Of a DNA stretch of 64,000 bases, positions 8,535 through 63,789 are shown piece after piece. The notes below the pieces were generated by a model. The model made no database searches, was not told the DNA's origin, and saw only the letters and a program-made list of their open reading frames with translations. A program made the translations under genes and the position numbers. The number at the start of each line of letters is the position of its first letter. The first letter of the stretch is position 1. This stretch comes from Deltaproteobacteria bacterium (GTDB lineage: Bacteria; SAR324; JACQKK01): positions 9,939 through 73,938 of the forward strand of contig JAOUEW010000008.1 in NCBI GenBank assembly GCA_029858505.1, read 5' to 3'.

Positions 8535-8639
8535 GGTCACCAAAGGAAAGAGATACCTTGCCAGATCACAACATCGTGGATCGTTTGTACACGCTCTGCA
8601 TCGTTGATTGGATGGGGGGGCATCCCAACAGCACCCCTC

Positions 8640-8800
8640 CCTGGCGGCTTCGCCGCCTGTCCCTCCCCTTCGTGGAGGGACTTTACCCGAAACCATCGGC
8701 TATTCGATTCATCCGTGCGGATGGTGAAACCGGGCAAAAGATAATACGACATCCGCGGGCTTCGATTCATTTTCCTTCCACGAAGGGGAGGGGTGCCGTT
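8640..8800. repeat. Single copy of the ~125-bp structured repeat family, flanked by inverted hairpin arms.
   Basis: GAAACCATCGGCTATTCGATTCATCCGTGCGGATGG...GCGGGCTTCGATTC is homologous to the units at 31157, 33803 and 36305. The flanks GTCCCTCCCCTTCGTGGAGGGAC and CCACGAAGGGGAGGGG are reverse complements of each other. Confidence 0.6.
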
Positions 8801-8933
8801 GGGAAGCCCCCCCAAAGCCGAAGGAAATCACGAGGAACAAGTGATATCCTTCCCAGAGCCCCTAACCTATACCACAACACCAGAAGCGCAACATTGTAGC
8901 TGTGGATGATATCATATTTCGTGAGCAATCGGG

Positions 8934-12781: not shown

Positions 12782-12816
12782 GGGGGGAGACACGGGGGAG
12801 ACACGGGGGAGATCCG
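12782..12816. repeat. Short tandem repeat (GGGGGAGACAC)x~3 in the folC-pirin intergenic region.
   Basis: Direct reading: ggggggagacacgggggagacacgggggagatccg, followed by an AT-rich gaataag/gaatagg repeat stretch. Confidence 0.6.
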
Positions 12817-12936
12817 ATTGATCAACGTTGATATAAAGATAGGGTGGAATAAGAAGAATAAGAATCGGTGAGAATAGGAGAATAGGGTCGTCAACGTATA
12901 AATGATGTATCCTGGAAGGTATAGACAGAGACCTTT

Positions 12937-12977
12937 GCATAACCCGGGTTTTTGCCGTGAACGGGGGGCATGGGGAG
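12937..12977 (+). promoter_or_regulatory. Copy 1 of the conserved upstream motif TGCATAACCSGGGTTTTTGCCGTGAA, about 70 bp upstream of pirin.
   Basis: Near-identical to 19406-19446 (+) and to the reverse complement of 43740-43760. All three are co-oriented with the downstream gene. Confidence 0.5.
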
Positions 12978-19264: not shown

Positions 19265-19405
19265 TTTGGATTGCCGCCTGAAAGGCGGCGGGGAGGGGTA
19301 TTTCAAAGAGAGATCATACGGCAGCATGAATGGAGCCTGAACAAACAAAACCATGGTTTCACCCATGATCTGGGACAACCCCCAGAAAGAAAATAGGAGA
19401 CATCT

Positions 19406-19479
19406 GCATAACCAGGGTTTTTGCCGTGAAAAGGGGGAATGGGAGATGGGAAAAAATAGGTTATGCAGAGGTCTCTATA
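19406..19479 (+). promoter_or_regulatory. Copy 2 of the conserved upstream motif, embedded in an inverted-repeat structure about 170 bp upstream of the oxidase operon.
   Basis: TGCATAACCAGGGTTTTTGCCGTGAAAAGGGGGAATGGGAG. Arms CTGCATAACC / GGTTATGCAG flank the core. The distal arm GGTTATGCAGAGGTCTCTATA is the reverse complement of TATAGA(CA)GAGACCTtTGCATAACC at copy 1. Confidence 0.5.
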
Positions 19480-23217: not shown

Positions 23218-23403
23218 GGAATTCCAGCATCCCCCTCAACCGTTCCGTTGATTCCGCCGGACGGAAGCCATCCCGTCACTTATCGGCTTCAAACCATCCC
23301 CCCCTCCCTGATTGGGGAGGGGGCAGGGGGGAGAGGTGTTGATGGGGGGTGTTGTTGGGAGAGATGTGAAAAATAAAGGTTAAGCAAATGTCTCCGGGAA
23401 CGG

Positions 23404-28316: not shown

Positions 28317-28563
28317 GGGTGATGATTCGCGTTCAGCCTGAAAATAAAGCCGTTTTTTCACCGCCAGTGCGGCCCCGGAAAGAGGGCCCAAAACCGCCGG
28401 TGAAAGAATATTGGATCCGGTTGATGAACCAAAGTTTACCCCAGGCGCCCCCTGGGGGCAAAAATATTTTTACGGAATTTCTTTTCCATCCGGGGGATTT
28501 TTTTCTAAAATAGGTACCATGGTATAAGAGATTCATTCACCCTTTTTCGTTTGGAATGGCCCC

Positions 28564-29934
28564 ATGGATGTCACCAGTGAAATGCTGAACAAATACAACG
28601 TATCGGCCCCCCGGTACACGTCCTATCCCGCCATTCCCTTTTGGAAGCCCGCCGACGGCACCCAGGCCGCGGCTTGGATTGCCGCCATGGAACCCGCCCG
28701 GCAAACCTCTTTGTCTTTGTACACCCACATTCCCTTTTGCAAAACCCGCTGTTACTACTGCGGCTGTTTCGTGGTGATTTCTCCCCACGAAGAGATTGCC
28801 CAGCCCTACGCCGATGCCCTGGAAAAAGAAATGGAACTGGCGGCGGGGCAAATGAAACACCGCTGGCCGGTGGCCCAGTATCACCTGGGGGGCGGCACCC
28901 CCAATTACCTAAACATTGCCCGAATGGAACGCTTGGTGGCCAAAGCCCGGGCGTTGTTTCCCTTTCAAGACGATGCCGAGATGAGCATTGAGGTTGACCC
29001 CCGCACCCTGAACAAAAATTATCTGGAACGGGTAAGGGCCCTGGGGTTCAACCGGCTGAGCCTGGGGGTTCAAGACTTCGACCCCGAAGTGATGGAAACG
29101 GTGAACCGGGTGCAGCCTTACGACATGGTGGCTGGCGTGGTGGAGCAGGCCCGCAAACTGGGCTTTTTATCGGTCAACTTTGATTTGATCTACGGGCTGC
29201 CCAAGCAAACCACCGCCACCTTTCAAAAAACCATGGCCCAGGTAAAAACCTTGGGCCCGGACCGGGTGGCGCTGTACCACTACGCCCACCTGCCCGACTC
29301 TCATCCCTATCACCGCCGGTTCGACCCAGCGGACCTGCCCGGCAGCCAAGAAAAGATGGATATTTTTCTGCAGGCCAGGGAGCGGTTTTTGTCGTGGGGT
29401 TATCAACCCATTGGGTTGGACCACTTTGCCAAGCCCGATGATGACCTGTCGGTGTCCTTCCGCAACCGCTCTATGCGGCGGAACTTTATGGGCTACACCA
29501 CCAAAGCCGGAACCGACATGCTGGCCTTTGGCATCAGCGCCATCAGCGATTTCAACCATGCCTTCTGGCAAAACGAAAAAAAGCTGCCCCATTATTACAA
29601 AGCCCTGGAAAAAGGCGAGCTGCCCGTGATTCGCGGATTGGAGCTGAGCGGAGACGACCGCCTGCGCCGCCAGGTCATCCAAAACCTGTTCTGCCAGGGG
29701 GGGGTAAATTTTGGGCAGATGGAGCAGGCCTACCAGATTCCGTTCCAAAGCCACTTTGCCGGAGAACTGGAAGCCCTGGCCCCCCTGCAAGACGATGGCT
29801 TGGTGACCCTTTCTCCAGAGGGCATCACCGTCACCGATCAGGGGCAGTTGTTCCTGCGGAACATCGCCATGACCTTCGACGCTTACCTGCGAAAAGGCAG
29901 CAAACCCCCGGTGCAGTTCTCTCGCACGGCATAA
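28564..29934 (+). CDS. hemN: Oxygen-independent coproporphyrinogen III oxidase (radical SAM).
   Basis: YTHIPFCKTRCYYCGC radical-SAM cluster motif. About 456 aa with an HemN C-terminal domain. Confidence 0.85.
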   Translation: MDVTSEMLNKYNVSAPRYTSYPAIPFWKPADGTQAAAWIAAMEPARQTSLSLYTHIPFCKTRCYYCGCFVVISPHEEIAQPYADALEKEMELAAGQMKHRWPVAQYHLGGGTPNYLNIARMERLVAKARALFPFQDDAEMSIEVDPRTLNKNYLERVRALGFNRLSLGVQDFDPEVMETVNRVQPYDMVAGVVEQARKLGFLSVNFDLIYGLPKQTTATFQKTMAQVKTLGPDRVALYHYAHLPDSHPYHRRFDPADLPGSQEKMDIFLQARERFLSWGYQPIGLDHFAKPDDDLSVSFRNRSMRRNFMGYTTKAGTDMLAFGISAISDFNHAFWQNEKKLPHYYKALEKGELPVIRGLELSGDDRLRRQVIQNLFCQGGVNFGQMEQAYQIPFQSHFAGELEALAPLQDDGLVTLSPEGITVTDQGQLFLRNIAMTFDAYLRKGSKPPVQFSRTA

Positions 29935-29982
29935 CGGGCGCCCCACAACCGGGATGGACAACCTCACCCCCAGAGAACCCCC

Positions 29983-31134
29983 ATGGCTGCGTCTCCCACC
30001 GATCAGGCCGAACGGATTTTGGCCGGAAAAAACAAAGAAACCATCCAGCGCCTGATGCAGGGGGTAATGCCCGTGCTGCAAGAAACCTGGGGAAACCCCG
30101 GGCGCTTTCAAGAAAAAGCCGTGGAGGCCCTGGACAAAGCCGCTCCCAGCTTGCTTTCCGAGATGGAAGCCGTGACCCTGTCTGGCCCCCTGGCCCAAAG
30201 CGTGTATCACCTGCTCGATGTCCACTTTCGCGCGGCATCGTCCACCCCAGAATTAAACGCCCTGCAAGTGAAGCTGGGAGCCAGCATGGTGTCTCCCTTC
30301 CGCCAGGGATGCCTGTGGCTGGCGGTGAAACTGCGCCAAGCCCAGTTGGTGTACCTGTCGGGGGAAGGCAAGGGCGCCCTAACCCGGCTGGCGGCGGGGC
30401 TGCAAAAAAACCTGGACAACCTGCCCCCTGAGTTGCGGGGCCTGGAACCCACCACCCTGGCTCGTCTGGAGTCGAAGCTGGCCGACGTCACCCTGCAGAT
30501 TTTGGGTCAGGCGTTGGGGCGGTTCTCGGCGGCCACCCTGGCTGGCCGCCTGCTGGAAATGGCCCGCGGCCAAGCCCGCATAGCTCCAGCGGCGGGGGCC
30601 GCGGAAGCCACGGCACCATCGGGGTACGGGGCCCTGCTGGCCCGCCTGGGCGACGCGGTGGTGAAGGCCGAAACCGCCCAGGCCCAATTCCGGTTTTCTC
30701 ACCTGGATGAAAACGGCCGGAAAACCCTGGCCAACAAAATGCGGCAGGCCATGGGTCAACAGCTTCCCCCCCTGCTGGCCCTGGCGCCGGAAGGATTCGA
30801 AACATTTTGCCGGGGAGTAGAAGCCGTGGTGTTCCCCTACCCCGAACAGGTGGAGTTTATCCGGGGGTTTTTGAAAACCCTGTATACCACCGCCAAGCAG
30901 GCCGCTTGGTTCAACGATTGCCCCACCCAAGCCAGCATCGTTCAGCAATACCGAAAACTGGCCGAAACCAAAACCATCAACCCCCTGACCCTGGCCCTGG
31001 CCAGAACCTTCGCCACCCACTCCCTGGCGGGCGGCGGGTTGACCCAGGCCTCCCTAGACGTGTTCTCCCTGGACCTGGTGGGGGAATTCCATTGGCCCCG
31101 CACGGTCGAAGACCTGCTGGCCCAATCGGCGTAA
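29983..31134 (+). CDS. Hypothetical protein (383 aa, helical). First gene of a three-gene cluster of unknown function.
   Basis: Intact ORF with good codon periodicity. No recognisable family. Confidence 0.45.
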   Translation: MAASPTDQAERILAGKNKETIQRLMQGVMPVLQETWGNPGRFQEKAVEALDKAAPSLLSEMEAVTLSGPLAQSVYHLLDVHFRAASSTPELNALQVKLGASMVSPFRQGCLWLAVKLRQAQLVYLSGEGKGALTRLAAGLQKNLDNLPPELRGLEPTTLARLESKLADVTLQILGQALGRFSAATLAGRLLEMARGQARIAPAAGAAEATAPSGYGALLARLGDAVVKAETAQAQFRFSHLDENGRKTLANKMRQAMGQQLPPLLALAPEGFETFCRGVEAVVFPYPEQVEFIRGFLKTLYTTAKQAAWFNDCPTQASIVQQYRKLAETKTINPLTLALARTFATHSLAGGGLTQASLDVFSLDLVGEFHWPRTVEDLLAQSA

Positions 31135-31156
31135 ATCTTCACCCCCCAATCCTTTT

Positions 31157-31376
31157 CTCGAAGCCATCGGCTATTCTCTACAACCGTTCGGTGGATGAAG
31201 ATTGAACGGATGCAAGCGCATAGCATCGCGGCTTCGAGTGATTCCCAAAAGCACCTCTCCCCTGCCCCCTGGCGGGGGCATCCCCTCCCCAATCAGGGAG
31301 GGGAAAGACTCGAAGCCATCGGCTATTCTCTACAACCGTTTGGTTGGTGAAAACTGAACGGATGCAAGCGCATCAC
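31157..31376. repeat. Two copies of the ~125-bp structured repeat family between the first and second genes of the unknown cluster.
   Basis: CTCGAAGCCATCGGCTATTCTCTACAACCGTTCGG...GCGGCTTCGAG (31157-31238) and a second head CTCGAAGCCATCGGCTATTCTCTACAACCGTTTGG at 31309-31376. A GC hairpin GCCCCCTGGCGGGGGC lies between them. Confidence 0.65.
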
Positions 31377-31501
31377 CCACCGGAGGGGAGTATTGGGTGC
31401 GGATGGGATGCCGCAAATAAAAATACACTTGATCTTGGAAAAACAATTGAATTAAGGTGAGGTGTCCACTGTCGCACTCCTGATCACCCCTCCCCCCCAA
31501 G

Positions 31502-32326
31502 GTGCCCATGCCCCCTGAATCTGGAACTGGCCAAGCGGCCACCATTTTACAAACCTTGTCGGATTTTATCGGCATAGAAGCCGGAAAACTCATTGAGGTC
31601 GGCGAGGTACTGGTGGCGGTAGGCTTACTGGTCATGACCCTGATGGAGCTGGTGAAAAACATGTTTCACCTGCGGTTGTTTTTTCACCGCTGGCAGGTGC
31701 GGCGCTGGCTGAACGCCCGGCCCAACCCCCGAGCCTACGAGCAGTTGATTCTGCTGGCCACGGGCTCCGCCCCCGGATCGTCTCCTGGCCTGTTGGGGCG
31801 GATGTCTGGTTTGCTGCTGGGAGACTTCCACCCCGGCGATGCCCTGTTTGACCAACCCACCACCAAAATGATGGGCCAGATCCAAGCGGCGGCCAACCAG
31901 GCCCTGGACTTCCCCCATTTGTTCCCCCATGTGTATGGCGTGTTGGCGGCGGCCTCCCCCGGCACCCTAAGCCCAGAGGGTGAAACTTGGCTGGCCTATG
32001 CCCAATCTCTCCAGGGCAAATCCACCAAAGGGAAAACACCGGTGTCGCTGGAGCAGGCCCTGCAAGCCAAAACCCAGGTGACCAAACTGGCCGCCCGCAA
32101 ACTAGACGCCCTGCAAAACAAAATAGACACCCTGTGGGCCCAACTGAACCAGCGGGTTTCGGTGGTCTCCGGTGCCCTGTTGATTGGCTACGCCCTGTCG
32201 AACGGAGCCGGGCGTGAAACGATGAGCGGATGGACCATCGCGGGCCTGGCGGTGATGGGCGGCATGATCTCTCCCTTTGCCAAAGACGTGGTGTCGGCGC
32301 TGGCGGGCCTGAAAAAGAGGGGCTGA
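31502..32326 (+). CDS. Hypothetical membrane protein (274 aa). Second gene of the cluster.
   Basis: ORF with N- and C-terminal hydrophobic helices. No family recognised. Confidence 0.45.
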   Translation: MPMPPESGTGQAATILQTLSDFIGIEAGKLIEVGEVLVAVGLLVMTLMELVKNMFHLRLFFHRWQVRRWLNARPNPRAYEQLILLATGSAPGSSPGLLGRMSGLLLGDFHPGDALFDQPTTKMMGQIQAAANQALDFPHLFPHVYGVLAAASPGTLSPEGETWLAYAQSLQGKSTKGKTPVSLEQALQAKTQVTKLAARKLDALQNKIDTLWAQLNQRVSVVSGALLIGYALSNGAGRETMSGWTIAGLAVMGGMISPFAKDVVSALAGLKKRG

Positions 32327-32329
32327 CCC

Positions 32330-33313
32330 ATGGACACCCAACCCTGGCTGGAATTGAGCTTTCGGCAATCCCCCGTGGGGGGAGACACCCAAGAAGCCCA
32401 CGGCGATATTACCGCCCTGGGCGAAGCCCTGGCCGGAGACCCCGCCCTTGGCGTGGTGTTTCTGGTGCATGGGTTTAACGTAACCCAGGCAGAGGGGCGA
32501 GAGGCTTATCGGGGGATGAACTTGGCCCAGGGGGCCCTGGCCCCCGGCCGCGACAACACCCCCCTGGCGTCGGGGCGGCAGGTGGTGCAGGTGTTTTGGG
32601 CCGGAGACCTGGACGCCCCGGAACTGGCGCGGCCCGCCTTTTATCCCTTTGCCATTGGCCGGGCCAGAGAAACAGGCCGGTTGTTCGCGGCCTTCCTGAG
32701 CAGCCTGGGGGCCCACCGCCCGGCGGACCAACCGCTGTCGGTCGAATTCATCGGCCATTCCATGGGCTGCCGGGTCATTCTGGAAACCCTGAAAAACCTG
32801 CCCGTGAAAGATCGGCTGTGGATTCACCGCGTGTTGTACTTGGCGGCGGCGGTGCCCACCCATAAGTTAGAAACCGGTAAGCAGGGAGACCTGCGCCCCA
32901 CCTGGCTGCAATGGAGCCAGGGAGAGATTCCCTGGCACAGCCTGCATTCTTGGGATGACCTGGTGCTGACCTATGCCTTTCCCCTGGGGCAAAGCCTAGG
33001 GGGGCCGGGAGAAGGCGTGCTGCCCACCGCCTTGGGCCGAAACCATTGCTGGATTCCCCTGCCCTACTTTCAGCAAACCCGCATCGCCCACGCCGGGCAT
33101 TCTGACTATTGGGGGAACCAACTGCAAAACCCCGGCGGGTGCTCCAAAGAAGAAACCCAGGCCAACAAAGATGCCGCCTGGGCCATCAACCAATACATGG
33201 GTTTTACCCAGGGCGGCCCCCGAGAATCCGCAGCCCGAGAAACCGCCGCTCGGGCGGTGATGGAAGCTCAGTCTGCCGGGCTGGAGCGGACCACCCCCCA
33301 AGTGGATTTATAA
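32330..33313 (+). CDS. Alpha/beta hydrolase of unknown function (DUF900-like serine hydrolase). Third gene of the cluster.
   Basis: VVFLVHGFN...FIGHSMGCRV nucleophile elbow (GxSxG). Start is 4 bp after the upstream stop. Confidence 0.55.
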   Translation: MDTQPWLELSFRQSPVGGDTQEAHGDITALGEALAGDPALGVVFLVHGFNVTQAEGREAYRGMNLAQGALAPGRDNTPLASGRQVVQVFWAGDLDAPELARPAFYPFAIGRARETGRLFAAFLSSLGAHRPADQPLSVEFIGHSMGCRVILETLKNLPVKDRLWIHRVLYLAAAVPTHKLETGKQGDLRPTWLQWSQGEIPWHSLHSWDDLVLTYAFPLGQSLGGPGEGVLPTALGRNHCWIPLPYFQQTRIAHAGHSDYWGNQLQNPGGCSKEETQANKDAAWAINQYMGFTQGGPRESAARETAARAVMEAQSAGLERTTPQVDL

Positions 33314-33453
33314 TCTTCAACACGATCAAACCGTTAGCCCATGGGGCCCATTTGTGGTTTGTAAACCCCGCCAGGAGAGGATAGAGTGGAGGTAACCTTC
33401 ACTGGGCAGTTCTTGATCTTCTGCCCCTGCGTCGCCCGAATCCCCCGCTTCCC

Positions 33454-33792
33454 ATGACCAAACGAGAACGCACTTACTACCGCGTGACCTTCACCAATGA
33501 AGTCGGTGAAGAAGAAGAAATCATCCAGGTCACGGCCCGGTACGTGTCGCCCTCCGACATGTACGGGCTGGTGGAAATCTCTGGCTTTGTGTTCCCCGAA
33601 GGGGGCCTGCTGCACAACCCCCAAACCGAACGGATCCGCAAAGAATTCGCCGACATCAAGCGCACCTGGCTGCCCTACCACGCCATTTTGCGCATTGACG
33701 AGGTGAGCGATGCCTCTGCGGCGGACCTGCGGGTGGTCCCCATGGACGGCACCCGTAAATCCCCCGAAAAAGTTCCCTCCAAAAACAGTTAG
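33454..33792 (+). CDS. Small conserved hypothetical protein (112 aa).
   Basis: Clean ORF, acidic N-terminus. No confident family assignment. Confidence 0.4.
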   Translation: MTKRERTYYRVTFTNEVGEEEEIIQVTARYVSPSDMYGLVEISGFVFPEGGLLHNPQTERIRKEFADIKRTWLPYHAILRIDEVSDASAADLRVVPMDGTRKSPEKVPSKNS

Positions 33793-33802
33793 GGGCCCTT
33801 TA

Positions 33803-34325
33803 CTCGAATCCACCGGCTATTTCATTCGGCCGTTCGGATGGGTCGGGTGAACGGAAACAAGCAACGCCCTAACGCCATTGAACTCCCCCTCTCTTCGGGA
33901 GAGGGGGGCGGGGGGTGAGGTCCAATGGCTCGAATCCACCGGCTATTCTATTCTCCTGTTCGGATGGGTCGGGCGAACGGAAACAAGCAACGCCCTAACG
34001 CCTTTGAACTCCCCCTCTCTTCGGGAGAGGGGGGCGGGGGGTGAGGTCCAATGGCTCGAATCCACCGGCTATTCTATTCTCCCGTTCGGATGGGTCGGGC
34101 GAACGGAAACAAGCAACGCCCTAACGCCTTTGAACTCCCCCTCTCTTCGGGAGAGGGGGGCGGGGGGTGAGGTCCAATGGCTCGAATCCACCGGCTATTC
34201 TATTCTCCCGTTCGGATGGGTTGGGCGAACGGAAACAAGCAACGCCCTAACGCCATTGAACTCCCCCTCTCTTCGGGAGAGGGGGGCGGGGGGTGAGGTC
34301 CAATGGCTCGAATCCACCGGCTTCG
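33803..34325. repeat. Tandem array of about 4.2 copies of a 126-bp unit of the structured repeat family.
   Basis: Unit starts at 33803, 33929, 34055, 34181 and 34307, exactly 126 bp apart and over 97% identical. Each unit carries the CCGTTCGGATGGGTCGGGCGAACGG hairpin and the CCCCCTCTCTTCGGGAGAGGGGG UUCG-loop hairpin. Confidence 0.85.
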
Positions 34326-34375
34326 AGAATCAAGAGGTGATTGAAGAATAAACGGGGAGAGAAAAACCGAACCCT

Positions 34376-34876
34376 TTACCAGCGGTATTCAACCCGAGAC
34401 CCAGGCCGCAACCCCAACCGTTCGGCCTGCCCGGCAGCCAGTTCCAGCACAAAGTTGGCCTCGGCGTCTGGGGCATAGGTGGGCAAATCACCATCGGGGG
34501 TGCCGGGGGGCTGGAACGGCACCCTGGAAGCCACGTACACCACCTGATTGTTATGCAACCACACGATATCAATGGAAAACACCATTCGCTTCATCCAAAA
34601 CCCATAGCGCCCAGGGCTGGCATACACAAACAACATGCCTTCGTTGGGCCCCAGCCCTTTCCGCCCCCCCAACCCCATGGCCCGCAGGGCGTCGGAGTCG
34701 GCGATGTCTACCCGAATCTCCTTGCCCCCCGCCACCACGACGGCCTGATTCATGCCTTGGTTCTTGGCCCCCCTGGCGGGGGTCCCCTGTAGAACCGAGA
34801 TGCTTAGGGCCAGCACCAGCAGGCCTTTCCCTAACCATGAGAAGCGCACATGTTGATTGGCGGACTTCAAACGCAT
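34376..34876 (-). CDS. DUF192 (COG1430) secreted protein.
   Basis: GMLFVYASPGRYGFWMKRMVFSIDIVWL core motif. Start set at MRLKS with a signal peptide. Confidence 0.65.
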   Translation of the reverse strand: MRLKSANQHVRFSWLGKGLLVLALSISVLQGTPARGAKNQGMNQAVVVAGGKEIRVDIADSDALRAMGLGGRKGLGPNEGMLFVYASPGRYGFWMKRMVFSIDIVWLHNNQVVYVASRVPFQPPGTPDGDLPTYAPDAEANFVLELAAGQAERLGLRPGSRVEYRW

Positions 34877-34983
34877 AGCGGAACCTGGAGAGAATGGGAT
34901 GGGGAAGGCTGATCTTTCGGTATGATAAGATGGACAAGACGGATAAGACCGAATGTGTTGCATGGCAACCGTAACCCGTACCG

Positions 34984-35502
34984 TTAGGCCATGGCGGCCA
35001 CCTTGGCCAGCCGTTTTTTCACCATATCCCGCCGTAGGGGAGGAAGATAGTCAATGAACAATTTTCCCTCCAGGTGATCCACCTCGTGCTGCAGGCACAC
35101 CGCCTCCAGACCCTCCAAGGTTTCCCGGCGGTGTTCCCCCTCCACCGTTTGGTATTCCACCGTTACCCGGCGGGAGCGCTTTACGTCGGCCCGAAATTCG
35201 GGAACGCTGAGGCAGCCTTCTTCCCCCACCCATTCGCCTTCTTGTTCCGTCAGGCGGGGGTTCACCCACACCCTGGGCTTCCGCAGGGCGGGGTCATCGT
35301 CTCCAGCGAAAATGTCGGTCACCACCAACCGGATGGAGCGCCCCACCTGGGGGGCCGCCAAGCCCATGCCCTCATTTTGATACATGGCGGCGGTCATCTG
35401 CCGGGCCAGCTCGGCCAAGGCGGCATCGAAGGTTTCCACCGGATCGGCTTTTCGCCGCAGGAAGGGATCGGGGAAGGTCAGAATGGTAAAGGGGGAAGAC
35501 AT
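34984..35502 (-). CDS. def: Peptide deformylase.
   Basis: GMGLAAPQVG, EGCLSVPEF and HEVDHLEG motifs. Confidence 0.9.
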   Translation of the reverse strand: MSSPFTILTFPDPFLRRKADPVETFDAALAELARQMTAAMYQNEGMGLAAPQVGRSIRLVVTDIFAGDDDPALRKPRVWVNPRLTEQEGEWVGEEGCLSVPEFRADVKRSRRVTVEYQTVEGEHRRETLEGLEAVCLQHEVDHLEGKLFIDYLPPLRRDMVKKRLAKVAAMA

Positions 35503-35799
35503 AAGTAAAACAAGCTCCTAAGAACAATCTTCCGTAAACCGTCTGGGTAAAACCATCGCCCAGTGAGCGCGGGGTGGATGGGTTATATTTTAACGCCAGA
35601 ATGCGCCCCGATCAATGGGATGGTAACTTGGTCACAGTGTAACCTCTGGGGGGATACTATCCTAAGATTGTCTGGATGATCGTTGTCCGTGAAAACCAGG
35701 GCTATGCCCCCGGCAAGTCAACGGCACAAAACAACTGAATAACGGAACCTTTCGCGAAATCTTCCGTTACAACCACAAGATCAATTGGAGGAACAGCCC

Positions 35800-36150
35800 A
35801 TGAGTTTGGTCATGGAATTAACCGATGAAACGTTTGTGAAAGAAGTGGTCGAAGCCGGGGTGCCGGTGATGGTGGATTTCTGGGCCCCCTGGTGCGGGCC
35901 TTGCCGGGCCGTGGCCCCCACCATGGAGGAAGTGGCCAGCGAGTTTCAGGGCCGGGCCAAGGTGGTAAAAGTCAATGTGGATGAAAACCAGGGCGTGTCT
36001 GGGGCCATGAACATTCGCTCCATTCCCACCGTGGCGGTGTTTGTGGGCAACACGGTGGTGGATATGCGGATGGGGGCCCTGCCCAAACCCCATTATCAGC
36101 AGATGTTGAACAATGCCTTGGCTGGCCAGGGAACTTCTCCCACAGCCTAA
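35800..36150 (+). CDS. trxA: Thioredoxin.
   Basis: WAPWCGPCR active site. Confidence 0.9.
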   Translation: MSLVMELTDETFVKEVVEAGVPVMVDFWAPWCGPCRAVAPTMEEVASEFQGRAKVVKVNVDENQGVSGAMNIRSIPTVAVFVGNTVVDMRMGALPKPHYQQMLNNALAGQGTSPTA

Positions 36151-36304
36151 CGTTATACCATAGAACGAGACGCCGTGGGTTCCGGTCGCAGCCCCCCCCT
36201 CCCCAGCGACCGGAGCCCCGGCGTTCCTCGTTTTTTCCCCATCGGATTCTTTCCCTTCCTTTTTTATCCCCTTTATTCTCATTTCTTCTTCCGCCGTCCC
36301 GATA

Positions 36305-36745
36305 CTCGAAGCCAGCGGTTATTCTGTTCATCCGTTAAAGCACCCCTCCCTGGCACCTTCGGTGCCTGTCCCTCCCCATCGTGGAGGGACAATACGGCTT
36401 AGGCCGAGGGGTGGAGATAGAATCCGTTTGGATGAGGAGACCGGAAGGAAGCAAGCGATTAACTTTTCGGCTTCGCTTTATTTCCCCTCCACGAAGGGGA
36501 GGGGATGTCCGCACAGCGGGCAGGGGAGGGGTGCTTTACGAGAGGGGCAGTGCTCGAAGCCAGCGGTTATTTTCTTCAACCGTTCAGTTGGTGAAAACTG
36601 AGCGGAAACAAGCAACGCCCAAACGCCATTGAGCTCCCCCTCTCTTCGGGAGAGGGGGCGGGGGGTGAGGTCCAAATACTCGAAGCCATCGGTTATTTTC
36701 TTCAACCGTTCGAATTGAGAAGACAGGAGGGCGGAAATACACCCC
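36305..36745. repeat. Cluster of three units of the structured repeat family (one expanded unit with nested inverted repeats, one full unit, one partial).
   Basis: Unit heads CTCGAAGCCAGCGGTTATT at 36305 and 36553, and CTCGAAGCCATCGGTTATT at 36678. The 36553-36677 unit is about 85% identical to the 33803 array unit. 36340-36534 contains nested palindromes GCACCCCTCCCTG...CAGGGGAGGGGTGC and GTCCCTCCCC...GGGGAGGGGATGTCC. Confidence 0.8.
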
Positions 36746-36765
36746 CCGATTGCGAACTGCCCCCC

Positions 36766-38694
36766 TTAGGGGGCGGGCTGAGGGGGCTGAGACGAGGCAG
36801 GTTCAGTAGGTGGAGCTGGGGCGGGAGCTTCCAGCATGGGCGCCGCAGTGGTGCCGGGGATATCCACAAACGGGATGTTTTGACGGAACAACACGCCTTC
36901 TTCCGGCGGGCGGCTGCCCTCGAATAAAACCGGGTCACTGGCGGTGAGGTACAAGATGAGGGTTTTTCGGGCTTTCTCCTGGTTGTTCATCCGCCGATAC
37001 ACCCGGCTGAGCCGCTCTAAAAACACCGTGCGGTAATGGTTGTTTTTTTCCAGCCCGGCTTCGAGCAGATCCCGGGCCAGCACCCAGTTGCCGCTTTCTT
37101 CGGCCACCCGGCTGGCCCCCTCAATCAACCCATAGTTTCGGGGATACAACGCCAGCCCCCGGTTGAACACCGCTTCGGCCTGCTTCAGGTTTCCCTCCAT
37201 TTGATACAGGTTCCCCACGGCCCGGTGAAAGGCCCCCAGGCCTTCTCCCCGGGTAAGGTAGGGGGTGAGCATTTGCAGCGCCTTGCGGGTGTTTCCCAGG
37301 CGGCCTTCCGCGGTACCGGCCAGATACACCGCCTCCCAGGGGGGGTCTTTCATGGCCAGCAGGGGTTTCGCCCCCTCCAGCGCGGCATTGTAATCGCCTT
37401 GAATGTAGGCCAGCCTGGCCCGGGCAAACAAGATGGCCGTTCCATGGTCGGGCAGCCCATCCAACACTTGTTTGGCTTCCGCAAAGCGGCCGGTCAGGGT
37501 GAGCCACTCCCCCTTCACCAGCAATCCCCGAAAATCGGTGGGGTTCAATTTCAAGTATTCTTCAATCCGCAGCCGTGCCTCCTCCAGTTTTCGCTCGGCC
37601 ATCAGCCGCTGAATTTTCAGCAGCTTGATCTGCGGATTTTCCGGATTGATTTTTTCCGCGGCGTTCAACAGGGTTTGCGCTTGGTCGGTTTCCTCTGCCC
37701 GGAACAGCAGCACGGCTTTCCAATACAGGGCTTCCTGTTGGTTGGGCTCAATATCTAGCAGGGTATTCAGCGATTCCATGGCCTGGGGGTGTTCCCCCCG
37801 GGAGATGGCCCCCCTGGCCAGGGCCAACAACACCCCCGGATGGGAAGGTTGGTGGCGGGCCAGCCCAGCCAGCAACTGGTCGGCTTGTTGAATTTCTCCT
37901 TTGCTCCGCAAGATCTCCACCCGCACCAATTGATCTTCGGTTTCCAAACCATCTTTTTGGCGCAATTGGCCCATCACCTTCAGGGCGTCGTCCCATTCCT
38001 GTCGCTGGTAATGAATATCCAGTTGCTCACGCAGCAAATCCGGGTCTCCCGGCCACTGGCGAAGGTCATCGCTGATCACCAGGGAAGCCACCGAAAAGTT
38101 ACCGCTGGCCTTCAAGATGCGAATTTTCAGCACCCGGGCATCGTGATCGTTGGGAGACACCCCCAGGGCGGCTTCCACCTCTCGGCGGGCCTCGGCCTGG
38201 CGGCCCAAGGCAAACAGCATGCGGGCATACTGAAACCGGCCTTCGAAATAACGTGGATCCCGCGCGGTGATTTTGGCTAAGATTTCCAACCCGCGGTCGG
38301 TTTGGTTCACCAGTTCATGGGTCATGGCCAGTTTCACGCTGGCCGACAGCAGGTCGGGGTCTATTTGGCTGGCTTGGTTGTAGGCCATCAGGGCGGGGAA
38401 ATACTTCTTTTGCCCCAGGTTGGCATCCCCCAGGGTCACTAAAATTTGGGCGTCGTAGGGATTCAACTTGGCAGCCTGGGCCGCGTAGGGCTCGGCTTCG
38501 GCGGGTTTGTTTTCTTTCACCAGCACCTGGGCCAACTCATGCAGCAATTCGGCATCCTCCGGCTGGCTCTCAACTTGTTTCCGGAGTTCCAACTCTCTCT
38601 GGGCCAGCTGGGTGGATAGTTCTTTGGCGCGCCAGGGGTTCAGCACCGACAGGTCGGAACAGCCGGAGAGGACGATCAACACGCCCGCCAACAT
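36766..38694 (-). CDS. Tetratricopeptide-repeat lipoprotein.
   Basis: Multiple TPR units across the full length. Start chosen at MLAGVLIVLSGC (lipobox); the ORF-track 5' extension is Arg/Gly-rich and overlaps the upstream gene. Confidence 0.65.
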   Translation of the reverse strand: MLAGVLIVLSGCSDLSVLNPWRAKELSTQLAQRELELRKQVESQPEDAELLHELAQVLVKENKPAEAEPYAAQAAKLNPYDAQILVTLGDANLGQKKYFPALMAYNQASQIDPDLLSASVKLAMTHELVNQTDRGLEILAKITARDPRYFEGRFQYARMLFALGRQAEARREVEAALGVSPNDHDARVLKIRILKASGNFSVASLVISDDLRQWPGDPDLLREQLDIHYQRQEWDDALKVMGQLRQKDGLETEDQLVRVEILRSKGEIQQADQLLAGLARHQPSHPGVLLALARGAISRGEHPQAMESLNTLLDIEPNQQEALYWKAVLLFRAEETDQAQTLLNAAEKINPENPQIKLLKIQRLMAERKLEEARLRIEEYLKLNPTDFRGLLVKGEWLTLTGRFAEAKQVLDGLPDHGTAILFARARLAYIQGDYNAALEGAKPLLAMKDPPWEAVYLAGTAEGRLGNTRKALQMLTPYLTRGEGLGAFHRAVGNLYQMEGNLKQAEAVFNRGLALYPRNYGLIEGASRVAEESGNWVLARDLLEAGLEKNNHYRTVFLERLSRVYRRMNNQEKARKTLILYLTASDPVLFEGSRPPEEGVLFRQNIPFVDIPGTTAAPMLEAPAPAPPTEPASSQPPQPAP

Positions 38695-38714
38695 TCCGGC
38701 CAATCCCTTTCCCG

Positions 38715-39548
38715 TTATTGCCGAGCGGCTTCTGCCGGCTGCACCTGAACCACGGGAGACAGCGGCCCCTCTCCGCCGAATTGATCCACCAGCCGCAGGG
38801 CATACTCCACCCGTGGGGAGGGCTTGGTCGGATCGGGTGTGGGGATGGCATCGGTCCAATGGTAGATATCCAAAGGTTTGGGGTTCAGGGGGGCCAAAGG
38901 CCAGGGGTTACCCTCGATTCGACGGTAAAGATTGGCCCTGAAATAGCGGACCTGGGTCTCCCGGGTTTCTGCTGGGTGATAGGAACGCAAAACTTGTTCC
39001 CTTCGGGGCTGCCAAGACAAAAGAAGGTTCCTCCGCCCCGTGGATTCCCGGGAGGAACCATTGGAAGGTGATTCCCAGGCCCAAGATACCGAGTGGGCTG
39101 GGATTTGGTTGAGCCGACCCAGGGGCAATTTAGCGGAAGGGTCTGATATTCCGGATGAATACCTCACAGAAATCTGAAATTCCCACTTTCCCGGCGTGGG
39201 GCGCATTCTGTACAGGGTAAACAGGCGGTCAAACTCCGCTTGCACCTGGTCGGACCCTTCCGGCAGAAAAGCCTGTTCCGTATTGGGAGAACAGGTCTCA
39301 CAATCCACCGGATACACATCTATCCGCAGCCAGTACCCCATCACCTCTCCCCATTGGCCGCGCAAATCGGCAGAGGGACGGATCCAACTGATCAGGGCGT
39401 AATCTTCCCGCTGCTGAATCCGCACCCCGGTGAGGGGGGGAATTCGCCGCAAGTCGGGGTGGGGGGGGGTTTTATACCCACAACCGGCAGGGACCAACAA
39501 ACACCCCGCCACCACCCACCACGACCACATCCTCCGTTTTCCTTTCAT
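38715..39548 (-). CDS. Hypothetical lipoprotein.
   Basis: Start set at MKGKRRMWSWWVVAGCLLVPAGC (signal plus lipobox). No family recognised. Confidence 0.45.
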   Translation of the reverse strand: MKGKRRMWSWWVVAGCLLVPAGCGYKTPPHPDLRRIPPLTGVRIQQREDYALISWIRPSADLRGQWGEVMGYWLRIDVYPVDCETCSPNTEQAFLPEGSDQVQAEFDRLFTLYRMRPTPGKWEFQISVRYSSGISDPSAKLPLGRLNQIPAHSVSWAWESPSNGSSRESTGRRNLLLSWQPRREQVLRSYHPAETRETQVRYFRANLYRRIEGNPWPLAPLNPKPLDIYHWTDAIPTPDPTKPSPRVEYALRLVDQFGGEGPLSPVVQVQPAEAARQ

Positions 39549-45583: not shown

Positions 45584-45767
45584 GGGTTTCCTTTCCCTTT
45601 GGCCCTTCTGGGCCTATTTCCCTTTGGCCCTTGCGGGCCCTTTGGCTCCCATCCTTCTGCCCCACAAAACCAGGGAAACGGAAGGGTTGTGGCCGATCTA
45701 CCGGCCCAATGCCCAAACAGAAAGCCTATTGAGGCATCCGTTTCAAAGCAAGGACCGGGCCACTGGG

Positions 45768-46910
45768 TTACCGGGCACGCAAAAACAGCCATCCTCCCAG
45801 ACCCGTAAACAAAAAATTGGCCATCCAGGCTCCCAGAAAGGGGGTCAACGTCCCCCCCCGGCCCAACATCTGGAACACCTCGTTCGACACCCAAAAGCAC
45901 AGCCCGATCACAATGGCGATCAGCAACTCACCAGAACCCCGGGCGAATCGCACATGGCCCTGAGACAAACAAACGGCGATCCACACCATCAGGAACATGG
46001 CGTACAGGGCCGCGGGGATGCCATACCAAGCCAACAAGGCGTTGGTCACGTTTCGGCCTTCCTGGGCCAGCCGTTGAATTTCCCCATACAGGTCTAAAAA
46101 CGGGGTGTGGGCCAGGTCCAGGTCCATCGGCCGAAACACCTGAGGAAAGGCCTCTGGGGGAACCCACTGGTTGTCTTGGCTTTCCATCACCCACAGGGTC
46201 CCTTCGGCCCGCTGTTGGGAAATACGCTGGAACCGCCACCCCTCCCCGTCCCGAACGCCCCGTTGAATGGCGGCCAGGACCGAAATTTTCCCGGTCAGGG
46301 GGTCGGTTTGATACATTTGGATTCCCCCCAGGCTGCCGTTGGGCATGTCCATCCGGCTGAAATAATATAACCGGTTCCCGTGAATGCGCCATTTCTGGCG
46401 CTCTGCCGAGGCCTCGGTCAGGCTGGCGTTTTCCGGGTTAAGCCACGGCCGGAAATAACTTTTATTCACGTAAGAAAACGCCGCGATGGGAACCATCAGA
46501 ACCATCAACGGAATCATCATCCGCAGCGGGCTAAAGCCGGCGCTTTTCATGGCCACCAGTTCCGAGGTGCGCCCAAAGCCGGTGAAGGTAAACAGGGCCG
46601 CCAGCAAAATGCCCATGGGCAGCATCAGGTCCAGGGTATCGGGCAGGGTTTGCAGGGTTTTTTCCAGGAACCCCCGCACCCCGGCCCAGCCGTTGAACAC
46701 TTTGTCTACTTCGCCCAAAAACGTGCTGATCACCACCAGAGTGATTAAAAAAGCCACCACCAGGAACAGATTCTTCAAAAAAGCCCGGCTGACATAGCGG
46801 GAAAGAGCATCGGTGGGAAGGTGAATCCCCCAGGCACTGCCGCCCGAAGCCCTGTTTCTCCAGGGGGCACCAGGGTTTAACCGTTTCAACAGCAGCATAA
46901 CAGGGTTCAT
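45768..46910 (-). CDS. LptF/LptG-family LPS export permease (YjgP/YjgQ).
   Basis: 380 aa with six TM helices, a periplasmic beta-jellyroll insert, and an LptFG-like N-terminus (FLKNLFLVVAFLITLV). Confidence 0.7.
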   Translation of the reverse strand: MNPVMLLLKRLNPGAPWRNRASGGSAWGIHLPTDALSRYVSRAFLKNLFLVVAFLITLVVISTFLGEVDKVFNGWAGVRGFLEKTLQTLPDTLDLMLPMGILLAALFTFTGFGRTSELVAMKSAGFSPLRMMIPLMVLMVPIAAFSYVNKSYFRPWLNPENASLTEASAERQKWRIHGNRLYYFSRMDMPNGSLGGIQMYQTDPLTGKISVLAAIQRGVRDGEGWRFQRISQQRAEGTLWVMESQDNQWVPPEAFPQVFRPMDLDLAHTPFLDLYGEIQRLAQEGRNVTNALLAWYGIPAALYAMFLMVWIAVCLSQGHVRFARGSGELLIAIVIGLCFWVSNEVFQMLGRGGTLTPFLGAWMANFLFTGLGGWLFLRAR

Positions 46911-47067
46911 GGCCGGGGCTCGAATTCCTCTGGCAGAAAACGGGCGGATTCTGATACATTGTGAAGATGATCCGCCTTGTTATTTCTATCGTATCGTTTT
47001 ATCAAAGAAGAGTACAAAAGAGTACAAAGCGGTACCCGTCGGTGGCGCCCATGGAGGAAGGAAAAAC

Positions 47068-49602
47068 ATGCCAAAATCTATTCTGATTCTGGAGGAAAAC
47101 TCGGTTGTTCACGGGCTGATTGCCTCCTCCCTCGACGTGGAAGGGGTCACCCTGCATCACGAGTTTGATCCGGCCCGCTTCTTGGAAAAAGTGAAAGAAG
47201 TCCGCCCGGACCTCATCCTGATCAGCAATGAGGAACACCAACAGGGTTACCCCGTGTGCCGCCACCTGGGTGCCGATAAAGCATTTTCAGCCATACCATT
47301 GATTCTGCTGGCCAATTCCAGAGATTTTTTAGAGCCCCAAACCCTGAAAGACCTGCGCATTTCTGGGGTGATTCGCAAGCCCTTCGAGGCGGGAGACATT
47401 CAGCAGCAGGTGAGCAAGCACCTGGATTTGAACGATTTCATGGAATCCTCCTTCGAATTCCGCCGCTCTGGGGCCACTGGAGAGGACACCCCCCATCCCT
47501 TGTCGGGGGTGAAGGTGCTGGATTCGGATGTGTTGGGGTTGCTCCAAGATGACCCCGAAATCCCTGAAGAAGAAGCCATTCCAGACGTAAACTTTAACCA
47601 GGACCTGGAAACCGAGGGTTGGGGTGCCCAGGCGGCAGCCCCGGCGGCCCAGCCCACCCGACCGTTTGCCCCACAGGCCCCTGCTCCGAACGCGTTTCAA
47701 CCCCAAGTTGAGACCCAACAAGATTTTTCGGTGGATTCCTTCCAGGAAGAACCCTACCCGACAGAGACCTTCCCATCAGAGGACTTCCAGCCGGAAGAAA
47801 TCACCGAGTTGGGCGGCCAGGATATTCTATCGGCCCCCCAGCCCGGCCGAGGGGGCATGGCCCCGGCCTTCATGGAACAGCCCCTGAGAACAACCCCCCA
47901 GCCCCCTGCCGTGGAACCGGAGAGGGTGGAAGTGGAAATTCACGCCGAAGAAATCGATTTTCAGCGGATGAGCGCTTCGCTGCAAAGCGGAATTACCTTG
48001 TTTGAGGAAACCCCGGCCCCGCCCTCCCGCTCCTTCACGACCCCCGAGCCCTCTCGCCCGGCTGGCAAGCCAGCAAGCCAGTTTACTTCCCAGCCGGCCC
48101 CCCAGCCCGAACCCATGGTGGAGGCCTCGTCTTTCGACAGTTGGAACGCCGGGGAAGAATTTGACGCCCCTGCCCAGCCTGTGGCTCAACCCGCAGCCAA
48201 ACCCGTTGCCCAACCGGCCCCCCAGCCTGAGCCAGGGATGGAGCCCCTCGACAGTTGGAGCTCCGAGGAAGACTTTGCGGCCCCCTCCCTGGATGCCGAT
48301 GAAACCGGGTTTGAAACCGATCTGTCCTCGGCGGAAGAAGAAGAACTGCCCGACGCGGTCCGCCGGATGACCGAAATGAACTCGCCCCTGTCCATGACCC
48401 CAGAGGAACGGGCTACGATGGTGGAGGGCATGGCCCAAGAGGAAGGGGTGACCTTCGATTCTTCCGATGCCGAACTGTCTTCCATGGCCGACGACATGCG
48501 CAGCGTGGAGCTGGGCCAGCCCGAACCCTCGGCCTTCGAGGCCGCCCTGCCGACCCAAAACATTCCCCGGCGGGCGCCCGAACCAGAGTTTTTCACCACC
48601 CCGGATACCTTCAACGCAAACCCGGCAGACACCGCCAAACCTGTCCAAACCGGCCCGGATACCTGGGAATCTCCCTACCTGGAAAGCCCGCTGGAATACA
48701 GCATCGAGGAAGAATCCCTGACGGCGGACCCCTTTACCCCAGCGGCGCCCGCCCCGCGGGAAACACCCGACTTCCAGTTTGATGACGGCATGACCTATGA
48801 CACCGGAGAATCTTCCGTGCCCCCGGCCAGCAGCGGCCTGGATGCCTTTGAGGCCGAAACCATGGAGGGGCTGGACAGCATGACCCGCTCCTTTGAAGAA
48901 AAGCATTCCACCGAAACCCCCATGGAGTTCACGCCAGAAATTCATCACGAGAGCCCAGGATGGGAATTCGATGGAGCGGCCCCAGAACCCGTCAAAGAAG
49001 AGCCCCTGGCCCTGGATGGATTTTCACGGTCCACCAGCCCCGCCTCGGGAGGGTTAGAAGACCTGGAGGGCGTTCCCTCGTTTGACGAGCAAGAATTTTC
49101 CTTCGACGGGGGTGGGTCCTCTGCCGGAGGCTGGGATTCTTCTCCCCAGGGCGGTGAAAGCGATGGCTTTGATGACGCCCTGAGTATGCTGCGGGAAGAA
49201 ATTTACGCCCACCCGGAAGGCGAGCGGCTGGATGACCTGCTGACCCACGAGGCCGTGCAAGAAGCCGCCGCCAAGTTGGAAATGCCTTCGTTCTCTTCCC
49301 ACTCCACCTACATTCGGGCCATGGGGGTTTCGGTGCTCCCCGCCCAAGGAGACGTAGCCCCCCAAGAGGATGGATTAGACCAAGGCATGTTTGAAACCGA
49401 TTGGGCCAACCCCCCCACCAGATTTCAGCCCCCCGCCGGAGACCTGGACGGCCCCCACGCCTACCTGGACGAAGCCAGCATGGCCAAGCTGAACACTGTG
49501 CTAGACGAGGTGATTTCCACCTCGGTGCGCAGGGCGCTGGAAGAAGAAGTGCCCAAGATGATTCAAAAAGCCAGGCAGGATAAAGGACGGCATGGAGCTT
49601 GA
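47068..49602 (+). CDS. Response-regulator receiver fused to a long acidic, Pro/Glu/Asp-rich disordered region with internal repeats.
   Basis: Receiver ILILEENSVVHGLIASSL...DLILISNEE...IPLILLAN (phospho-acceptor Asp context retained). About 700 aa of low-complexity sequence with duplicated QPAPQPEP...DSW..EE(F/D)..AP blocks. Confidence 0.6.
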   Translation: MPKSILILEENSVVHGLIASSLDVEGVTLHHEFDPARFLEKVKEVRPDLILISNEEHQQGYPVCRHLGADKAFSAIPLILLANSRDFLEPQTLKDLRISGVIRKPFEAGDIQQQVSKHLDLNDFMESSFEFRRSGATGEDTPHPLSGVKVLDSDVLGLLQDDPEIPEEEAIPDVNFNQDLETEGWGAQAAAPAAQPTRPFAPQAPAPNAFQPQVETQQDFSVDSFQEEPYPTETFPSEDFQPEEITELGGQDILSAPQPGRGGMAPAFMEQPLRTTPQPPAVEPERVEVEIHAEEIDFQRMSASLQSGITLFEETPAPPSRSFTTPEPSRPAGKPASQFTSQPAPQPEPMVEASSFDSWNAGEEFDAPAQPVAQPAAKPVAQPAPQPEPGMEPLDSWSSEEDFAAPSLDADETGFETDLSSAEEEELPDAVRRMTEMNSPLSMTPEERATMVEGMAQEEGVTFDSSDAELSSMADDMRSVELGQPEPSAFEAALPTQNIPRRAPEPEFFTTPDTFNANPADTAKPVQTGPDTWESPYLESPLEYSIEEESLTADPFTPAAPAPRETPDFQFDDGMTYDTGESSVPPASSGLDAFEAETMEGLDSMTRSFEEKHSTETPMEFTPEIHHESPGWEFDGAAPEPVKEEPLALDGFSRSTSPASGGLEDLEGVPSFDEQEFSFDGGGSSAGGWDSSPQGGESDGFDDALSMLREEIYAHPEGERLDDLLTHEAVQEAAAKLEMPSFSSHSTYIRAMGVSVLPAQGDVAPQEDGLDQGMFETDWANPPTRFQPPAGDLDGPHAYLDEASMAKLNTVLDEVISTSVRRALEEEVPKMIQKARQDKGRHGA

Positions 49603-63738: not shown

Positions 63739-63789
63739 GCCCAAGAACGCAGCACTGGAATCTCGTGGGGGATGGAGAAAATCCGCGGC

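Follow-up and report, generated by a model that had tools for sequence, protein, structure and literature searches.

A 64,000-nt stretch of the genome of Deltaproteobacteria bacterium (GTDB lineage Bacteria; SAR324; JACQKK01; GenBank assembly GCA_029858505.1, contig JAOUEW010000008.1, positions 9,939 to 73,938), hereafter called the window, contains a single strong tandem repeat array, located at 33803-34322 (Tandem Repeats Finder; the sequence agrees). We interpret this array, with a probability of roughly 70%, as a non-coding four-copy tandem of a truncated (A-type) member of a mosaic intergenic repeat family that is specific to its lineage. The family would be of the kind formed by repetitive extragenic palindromic (REP) sequences, their paired hairpin forms (REPINs) and bacterial interspersed mosaic elements (BIMEs), or by miniature inverted-repeat transposable elements (MITEs). 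It is new and restricted to its lineage, but its kind is familiar and it does not constitute a new kind of system.

The tandem array

The array runs head-to-tail with a period of 126 bp (4.1 copies, 97% matches, 0% indels, score 977) and occupies the gap between two convergent genes, which encode a DUF1820 and a DUF192 protein (Table 1). An earlier note on this DNA, made from the sequence alone, had described five unit starts 126 bp apart, ~4.2 copies and more than 97% identity between units, and had deduced a very recent amplification or active homogenisation. The exact spacing of 126 bp was confirmed, both in the sequence and by Tandem Repeats Finder. The tandem array itself also stands, with four units; the fifth start proved to belong to a 21-nt mini-palindrome (CTCGAATCCACCGG followed directly by CTTCGAG) and not to a truncated unit. 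In this mini-palindrome, at the 3' end of the array, the first 14 nt of the unit are joined straight to the 3' arm of the family. The first 16 nt of the mini-palindrome form the direct repeat by which the 126-bp unit is delimited. Any two of units 2-4 have 1-3 differences (97.6-99.2% identity), in line with the identity and the recent amplification that had been claimed. Neither claim extends to unit 1, which differs from units 2-4 at 6-7 sites (94.4-95.2% identity) and has diverged by 5%. All differences between units are confined to unit positions 20-75, and the 3' 51 nt are the same in all four units. Units 1 and 4 have a 96-nt stretch in common, the longest shared run in the array is 138 nt, and each 141-mer is unique.

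Every unit contains the previously noticed 7-bp hairpin CCGTTCG/CGAACGG (hairpin 1). A second, 23-nt hairpin (CCCCCTCTCTTCGGGAGAGGGGG, hairpin 2) has four copies in the array and one more at 36636, with 0 expected from shuffled sequences. This hairpin had been described as a 10-bp stem closed by a UUCG tetraloop. It exists, but is not a canonical cUUCGg tetraloop on such a stem: read from the sequence, its perfect register has 9 Watson-Crick pairs with the 5-nt loop UUCGG or, if one U·G pair is added to these, a loop of 3 nt. A CRISPR architecture was not found; the units adjoin one another without spacers, and all of the 126 bp is repeated.

A dispersed family of mosaic repeats

The BLAST and nhmmer searches that the earlier note had proposed recovered a dispersed family. 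With one unit as query, and over the window plus 194 kb of related contigs, nhmmer gave 59 matches (E <= 0.01). Divergent copies had been expected in at least four other intergenic sites of the window, and five were found (8613-8814, 23236-23343, 31157-31385, 36305-36539 and 36553-36790), all intergenic and on the + strand. A fuzzy search of the window for the conserved head of the repeat gave 10 heads, also all on the + strand. In total ~60 copies were collected, nearly all located between open reading frames (ORFs) and all present either in the window or in contigs of the Joint Genome Institute (JGI) metagenome Ga0224495. A metagenome-wide pattern scan likewise drew 21 of its 21 matches from this one metagenome. 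The G + C content of the Ga0224495 contigs (60.0%) is close to that of the window (59.8%). The contigs with family copies probably derive from the same genome as the window, so that they do not show any breadth of the family. An orientation locked to the replichore was considered and rejected, as both orientations are present within single loci.

Alignment of ~50 copies defined a core of 82-95 nt, CTCGAAKCCAyCGGyTATTCTnTTCAnCCGTTCGG, loop, CyGGAnGG-AAGCAAGCrCATCAC-...CGGMTTCGAG. The core starts with a conserved, non-palindromic head of 35 nt (CTCGAAKCCAyCGGyTATTCT..CCGTTCGG), in which 22 positions are >=90% conserved, against a mean column identity of 62% (47 copies). The 3' arm of the core, GGMTTCGAG, is complementary to the first 9 nt of the head. 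The core is followed by GC-rich pyrimidine/purine hairpins (CCCCTCC..GGAGGGG and variants) and then by a G-rich half-repeat. The full form (the composite, ~195 nt) has two further hairpins 5' of the core, and an outer inverted repeat of 12-17 bp (AACAGCACCCCTCCCTG...CAGGGGAGGGGTGCTGTT) closes a nested palindrome of several hairpins; repeat sequences of the family are also given as CACCCCTCCCTG/CAGGGGAGGGGTG. The A-type unit of the array consists of the core, the hairpin variant CCCCCTCTC..GAGAGGGGG and a variant 3' half-repeat GGCGGGGGGTGAGGTC; it lacks the 5' half and has no terminal inverted repeats.

Several copies depart from this scheme. In three composites (36393-36440 in the window, ~5367-5410 in locus L074 and ~3350-3395 (-) in locus L081) CGGCTTAGGCCGAG..GGAGAATAGAA stands in place of the standard head; it apparently contains an inverted copy of the TTCTATTCT segment of the head, together with a small new hairpin, CGGC-TTAG-GCCG. 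In the composite at 8613-8814, positions 8613-8641 pair with 8786-8814 over 29 bp (93% complementary), where 17 bp is the usual length of the inverted repeat. The element may thus have an additional outermost layer, GGGGGCATCCC...GGGAAGCCCCC, which is seen 3' of several other copies as well. The octamer TCGAATCC, present at 33803-33816 and in every other head, equals the consensus of the tRNA T-loop/T-stem (GGTTCGAATCC). A tRNA origin of the head was nevertheless rejected, for ARAGORN found no tRNA in the window and Rfam gave no tRNA match there.

A scan of 185,579 GTDB species representatives with a 20-nt head pattern gave 66 single matches in unrelated taxa, with ~35 expected by a rough chance estimate; these matches are at chance level and the family is present in none of the representatives. 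Four cyanobacterial matches were rejected as relatives: they are terminator hairpins of the ordinary kind (AATAGCCGATGGCT...AGCCATCGGCTATT) and resemble the family in nothing else. Two matches in a viral scan were rejected as well, since only the 20-nt pattern agrees. A literature search on six element strings gave nothing relevant.

The valyl-tRNA synthetase (ValS) and the DUF1820 protein of the window are 100% identical to proteins of an NCBI metagenome-assembled genome of 'Deltaproteobacteria bacterium'. The closest ValS outside the organism's own record is 65% identical; among named relatives, SAR324 and 'Lambdaproteobacteria' metagenome-assembled genomes stand nearest. The family was absent from the relatives' loci L091-L093 (ValS matches of 61-65%) and L094-L097 (DUF1820 matches of 62-63%), and the pairing of DUF1820 with DUF192 is not conserved. 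Because the relatives lack both the family and this pairing, no empty site could be defined. Locus L092 (Ga0224495_10002070) belongs to a second related organism (ValS 65% identical, G + C content 56%); it has the same gene order as the window, LptF/G - large protein - ValS - SerA, and no family copy in 13.5 kb.

Folding and compensatory changes

The composite folds into a five-branch structure with a minimum free energy of -113 kcal/mol (z = -8.8; opposite strand z = -6.5). A single array unit gains no stability over shuffled sequences (z = -0.3); for the whole array, z is -2.5.

Covariation of the composite was tested on a MAFFT alignment of 16 copies, with 500 shuffles and slid controls. 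In this alignment 97.7% of the cells are paired and 10 pairs have changed on both sides. The covariation was 0.196, against a shuffle mean of 0.112 (reached by 0 of the 500 shuffles) and 0.03-0.07 for the slid controls; hairpins A and A', together with one outer pair, contributed most of it. There are 54 G·U cells and only 6 A·C cells (minority states 26 and 6, binomial p = 5e-4), an excess that indicates folding of one strand, with the C-rich arms 5'; these covariation and strand statistics come from copies related by ancestry and are to be read with that caveat. Compensatory change thus keeps the hairpins of the composite, and its signature is that of one strand (G·U-tolerant). The compensatory base pairs that the earlier note had suggested looking for are therefore present in the flanking hairpin modules of the ~195-nt element, but not in the core or the array-type unit. 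RNAalifold found essentially no consensus structure in 47 cores, and at the single variable position of the terminal inverted repeat of the core (K in column 7, M in column 77) the partners vary independently. Among ten distinct A-type units 98% of the cells are paired, with 0 double changes; hairpin 2 is invariant and the 4 one-sided changes all give G·U. Because the hairpins hardly vary, the compensatory test is uninformative for these units.

Comparison with known systems

The closest precedent is the REPIN/REP system with its REP-associated tyrosine transposases (RAYTs), which in Pseudomonas forms ordered tandem REPIN clusters; membership of this system is not established for the array family. 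Like REPs, the family consists of short imperfect palindromes in many extragenic copies (~60 heads, with recurrent GC-rich hairpin modules). It also has in common with REPINs, REPs and BIMEs that it forms hairpins, mosaic clusters and nested insertions. As in REPINs, two conserved sequences of the composite lie inverted around a variable spacer, pairing is kept by compensatory change (seen in the composite as the 10 double-change pairs), and nearly identical units stand in ordered tandem arrays. The REPIN fold is that of the composite, with its outer inverted repeat; the array unit contains the 3' half only. The four units and mini-core of the array can be compared with the largest cluster of strain SBW25, which consists of four REPINs and one REP (PMC3116915).

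The composite is small and non-coding and has terminal inverted repeats, as MITEs do; the array unit is without such repeats. Bacterial MITEs (such as the Neisseria Correia elements, ERIC, RUP and the cyanobacterial Nezha) are short, non-coding and lineage-restricted, with terminal inverted repeats and long stem-loops, and are intergenic, often near gene ends. The array family resembles them in size, non-coding nature, terminal inverted repeats, stem-loop folding, intergenic position and lineage restriction. It differs in that neither a target-site duplication nor a parent insertion sequence (IS) with matching ends was shown; copies are mostly embedded in others, which hides their boundaries.

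Tandem arrays of small-RNA genes also exist, NsiR1 in Nostoc being one. Both these and the 126-bp array consist of head-to-tail, intergenic, hairpin-bearing units of ~100 nt. Unlike the units of NsiR1-type arrays, the 126-bp units have no promoter-like or terminator-like sites (0 promoter-like sites in the array, searched with the sigma-70 consensus only), and they belong to a dispersed repeat family. On sequence grounds, the array units are not expected to be individual small-RNA genes.

If the array belongs to such a REP/REPIN/BIME- or MITE-like family, the elements may have spread as non-autonomous elements that fold as single-stranded DNA (or RNA) and rely for their copying on a transposase gene at another locus, in the way that REPINs depend on RAYTs and MITEs on an IS. 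The array would then have originated in place, when head repeats of 16-35 nt on either side of an A-type body recombined unequally or by slippage. The state before amplification may still be visible at 36553/36679, and further unequal exchange would keep the inner units 98-99% alike. If the elements are co-transcribed with the upstream gene, their hairpins could act as 3'-end structures (a decay barrier or a terminator substitute), by analogy with E. coli REPs, as a side effect.

A number of observations weigh against this interpretation. No transposase or RAYT was found in 258 kb, either by tblastn with RayT, IS608 and IS200 queries or by a scan for HUH...Y..NP. The flanks of 20 composites, most of which abut other modules, have no common target-site duplication, and no empty site was found in the relatives' loci. 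The modules are directly oriented, unlike the alternating modules of E. coli BIMEs. A GTAG-type REP head is missing as well: the REP classes of E. coli and Pseudomonas have a conserved GTAG-type tetranucleotide 5' of the palindrome, and GTAG is absent from the family, of which the consensus ends are AACAGCACCCC... and ...GGGGTGCTGTT. At ~195 nt and with five branches, the full element is larger than a REPIN (~70-110 nt), and the array unit has no 5' partner and hence is not itself a REPIN-like hairpin. The best-conserved part, the 35-nt non-palindromic head, has no counterpart in REPs and is atypical for them. The terminal inverted repeat and inner hairpin of the core are 83% paired, with covariation not above that of the shuffles, and strand-biased C-to-T mutation together with the shared ancestry of the copies could be partly behind the G·U excess. 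Finally, units 2-4 are not simple recent duplicates of unit 1. They resemble the family consensus more than unit 1 does, and for this reason the array is not a fresh duplication of that unit; the pattern fits an edge unit that drifted while the inner units were homogenised.

Genomic context and a possible RNA function

Alternatively, the elements might be functional structured RNAs, acting on the + strand as modules of 3' untranslated regions or as stand-alone non-coding RNAs. The array would in that case be a set of hairpin-RNA copies, for instance for protection of mRNA 3' ends, termination between convergent genes or titration of a protein. We consider this unlikely, while recognising that part of the evidence points to it. 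The predominance of G·U over A·C and the compensatory changes in the composite both speak for an RNA. The upstream gene has the same orientation as the cluster in 22 of 31 cases (71%; p = 0.03), and 9 of these 22 clusters begin 11-23 nt past its stop codon, or 0-10 nt if the 5' half-repeat is counted. The commonest setting of the clusters is between convergent genes. Between the convergent DUF1820 and DUF192 genes no canonical terminator was found besides the repeat hairpins. Against an RNA function, covariation is absent in the core and the array unit, the z-scores of the single unit and the whole array are those given above, and the array has neither promoter-like nor terminator-like sites. 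In addition, the remaining 9 of the 31 clusters are antisense to the upstream gene, among them a whole second array in locus L073 that is antisense to both its neighbours; some copies are located 3' of intrinsic terminators, and the family is seen in one genome only.

One module resembles a known RNA motif. Two tRNAs apart, no Rfam family attained its gathering score, either in the window or across 136 kb of loci. At a relaxed threshold, the 5' two-hairpin module matched whalefall-1 (RF01762); the copy in the window scored 26.8 bits and five others 20.4-26.7 bits, below the gathering score of 37. These whalefall-1-like sites are at 36341-36392 (-) in the window, 5921-5972 and 6133-6184 in locus L086, and 5541-5594, 5978-6031 and 6424-6477 in L073. 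The module (CCCTG-hairpin-CTGTCCCTCC..GGAGGGAC-AATAC) aligns over the entire 56-nt model, with which it shares both hairpins and, in the linkers, the bases GACAG and CAGGG. Whalefall-1 and the array family both come from uncultured bacteria. Whalefall-1 was known to its authors from whale-fall metagenomes only and was rated by them as certainly RNA (PMC2864571). For an RNA function of the elements the likeness counts in favour, but the match is sub-threshold and always on the strand opposite to that of the element, which is also opposite to the G·U-favoured one. The module is missing from the array unit, and the array has no match.

It is less likely still that the ~195-nt five-branch element, with its invariant single-stranded head, represents a new strand-specific class, either a post-stop-codon RNA module controlling the upstream mRNA or an element with an att-like head. 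Whalefall-1 would then be one of its modules, read from the wrong strand.

Copy number in public assemblies

In assembly ERZ27296335 of the European Nucleotide Archive (ENA), made independently from the same population and with both flanks 100% identical to the window, the locus has exactly one unit (unit 1) and the terminal mini-core. The copy number thus is 4 in one assembly and 1 in the other, and the four-copy array could be an assembly artefact, with one unit in the true locus. This we regard as improbable. A one-unit path is expected from graph collapse, or from a crossover between units 1 and 4, through the 96 nt that they share, and the six mismatches of the right-hand ENA alignment are all differences between units 1 and 4. 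The ENA assembly is itself broken 83 nt upstream of the array; the contigs concerned (L098 and L100), matching 28330-33719 and 33579-39502 of the window, overlap by exactly 141 nt. The Logan unitigs of run SRR7132115 end at position 76 of unit 1 and resume at 34293. Because unitigs break where the unit-1/unit-4 and the internal/terminal junction paths branch, the reads of SRR7132115 must contain at least 2 tandem units. Moreover, each unit of the array has variants of its own, and no 141-mer occurs twice. Altogether, 2 of 3 public assemblies fragment or collapse at the array locus.

The second array, in L073 (5420-6421), is more complex, with periods of 198, 237 and 435; there the A-type unit of the 126-bp array alternates with the 5' hairpin module. 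Tandem clusters have arisen at least twice. An A-type body followed by a head 126-127 nt downstream is present at 36553/36679 in the window, 7589/7462 in locus L075 and 11914/11788 in locus L070. Such head pairs, 126 bp apart, therefore form a direct-repeat substrate for slippage or unequal exchange, and the arrangement at 36553/36679 is a likely precursor of that in the array.

The same observations could be read differently, namely that the head is an att-like site for site-specific recombination, at which 126-bp cassettes are added singly, and that arrays grow by integration instead of duplication. The head is indeed the best conserved part of the repeat, is non-palindromic and is found at every unit boundary. 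A-type bodies are always bracketed by heads, the pair at 36553/36679 being 97% identical with rare variants in common, and unit 1 is not the source of units 2-4. Nonetheless, we hold this to be very improbable: no recombinase turned up in the neighbourhood, there are many differences between the bracketing heads at L075, and unequal crossing-over with divergence of the edge unit is the simpler account.

The open reading frame across the array

The ORF at 33878..34351 that the earlier note had pointed out exists (157 aa, TTG start), and its description as an annotation trap is correct insofar as it is spurious. The NCBI pipeline did not fall into this trap: the flanking genes have consecutive accessions (MDH4122176.1 and MDH4122177.1), from which it follows that no gene was annotated between them. 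The ORF is not a gene. That the array encodes a protein of 42-aa repeats, on account of the open frame spanning it, can practically be dismissed, given the TTG start, the lack of a Pfam family, the lack of any homologue among 5.8 billion proteins, the use of another frame in L073 (the same DNA is read as ELPLSSGEG there and as NSPSLRERG here), its absence from the annotation in the NCBI record and the position of the dispersed copies outside ORFs. The proposal of a structured RNA or a REP/BIME/MITE-like element, and not a protein, has thereby held: the translation is not conserved, and the unit is one member of a mosaic intergenic family with many copies.

Feature coordinates and other repeats

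The features of the array locus and of the dispersed copies in the window are given in Table 1.

Table 1. Positions in the window of the tandem array, its flanking genes and the dispersed members of the repeat family
Feature	Position	Strand	Remarks
DUF1820 family protein MDH4122176.1	33454..33792	+	Pfam PF08850, E = 1e-19; stop codon 10 nt 5' of array
GGGCCCTTTA, degenerate remnant of family 5' inverted repeat with TTTA linker	33793..33802	+	Consensus CACCCCTCCCTTTA, which precedes heads in simple elements; based on comparison of sequences 5' of heads
Unit 1	33803..33928	+	Most divergent unit; sole unit in ENA assembly
Spurious 157-aa ORF	33878..34351	+	Arises since the 126-bp period is a multiple of 3
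Unit 2	33929..34054	+	
Unit 3 (reference unit)	34055..34180	+	Head 34055-34089; hairpin 1 34082-34106; linker; hairpin 2 34137-34159; G-rich tail 34160-34180, counterpart of the variant 3' inverted repeat
Unit 4	34181..34306	+	
Terminal mini-core CTCGAATCCACCGGCTTCGAG	34307..34327	+	5' arm of head fused to 3' arm of family (family consensus)
DUF192 protein MDH4122177.1	34376..34876	-	Downstream gene, convergent
Composite element between divergent genes	8613..8814	+	Outer palindrome extends to ~29 bp
5'-truncated core with type-II tail (CCCCCCCTCCC..GGGGAGGGGG, then CAGGGGGGAGAGGTG)	23236..23343	+	Between convergent genes
Two cores (31157-31238 and 31309-31385) with 5' hairpin module between them	31157..31385	+	Variant inverted repeat CACCTCTCCCCTG; begins 23 nt past stop codon of upstream gene
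Truncated head	36305..36335	+	Adjoins composite element
Full composite element (~195 nt)	36336..36539	+	Outer inverted repeat, four hairpin modules, variant head
Solitary array-type unit	36553..36678	+	80-84% identity to array units; next head exactly 126 nt downstream
Core copy with divergent hairpin tail	36679..36790	+	Extends ~25 nt into 3' end of TPR gene

The window contains some other repeats. A 47-nt repeat (..TGCATAACCnGGGTTTTTGCCGTGAA..), unrelated to the array family, has two intergenic copies that are 87% identical (12928-12974 and 19397-19443), the second of which lies within a long inverted repeat, GAGACATCTGCATAACC...GGTTATGCAGAGGTCTC. At 63667-63741 there is a perfect tandem duplication of 38 bp (2.0 copies, 100%; TTCTTTCTGGCGGCCTGTCTAGCGGGCTGGGCCCGCCT). 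Short tandem repeats are present at 12783-12812 (GGGGGAGACAC, 2.7 copies, 100%) and 45592-45639 (a 25-bp unit, 1.9 copies, 91%). A direct repeat (48089-48170 and 48209-48284; 74% over ~80 nt) is located inside an ORF of 897 aa (46909-49602) upstream of valS.

Significance

For annotation, the array and its relatives are to be masked as repeats, and the locus is one that breaks short-read assemblies. The understanding of elements of this kind is unchanged, and interest in the family would rise only if the head proved to be a site of recombination or protein binding. The orphan whalefall-1 motif may have its genomic context in this family. The family documents REPIN/BIME-like mosaic repeats, with evidence of selection for hairpins on one strand, in a deep-branching, uncultured lineage related to SAR324.

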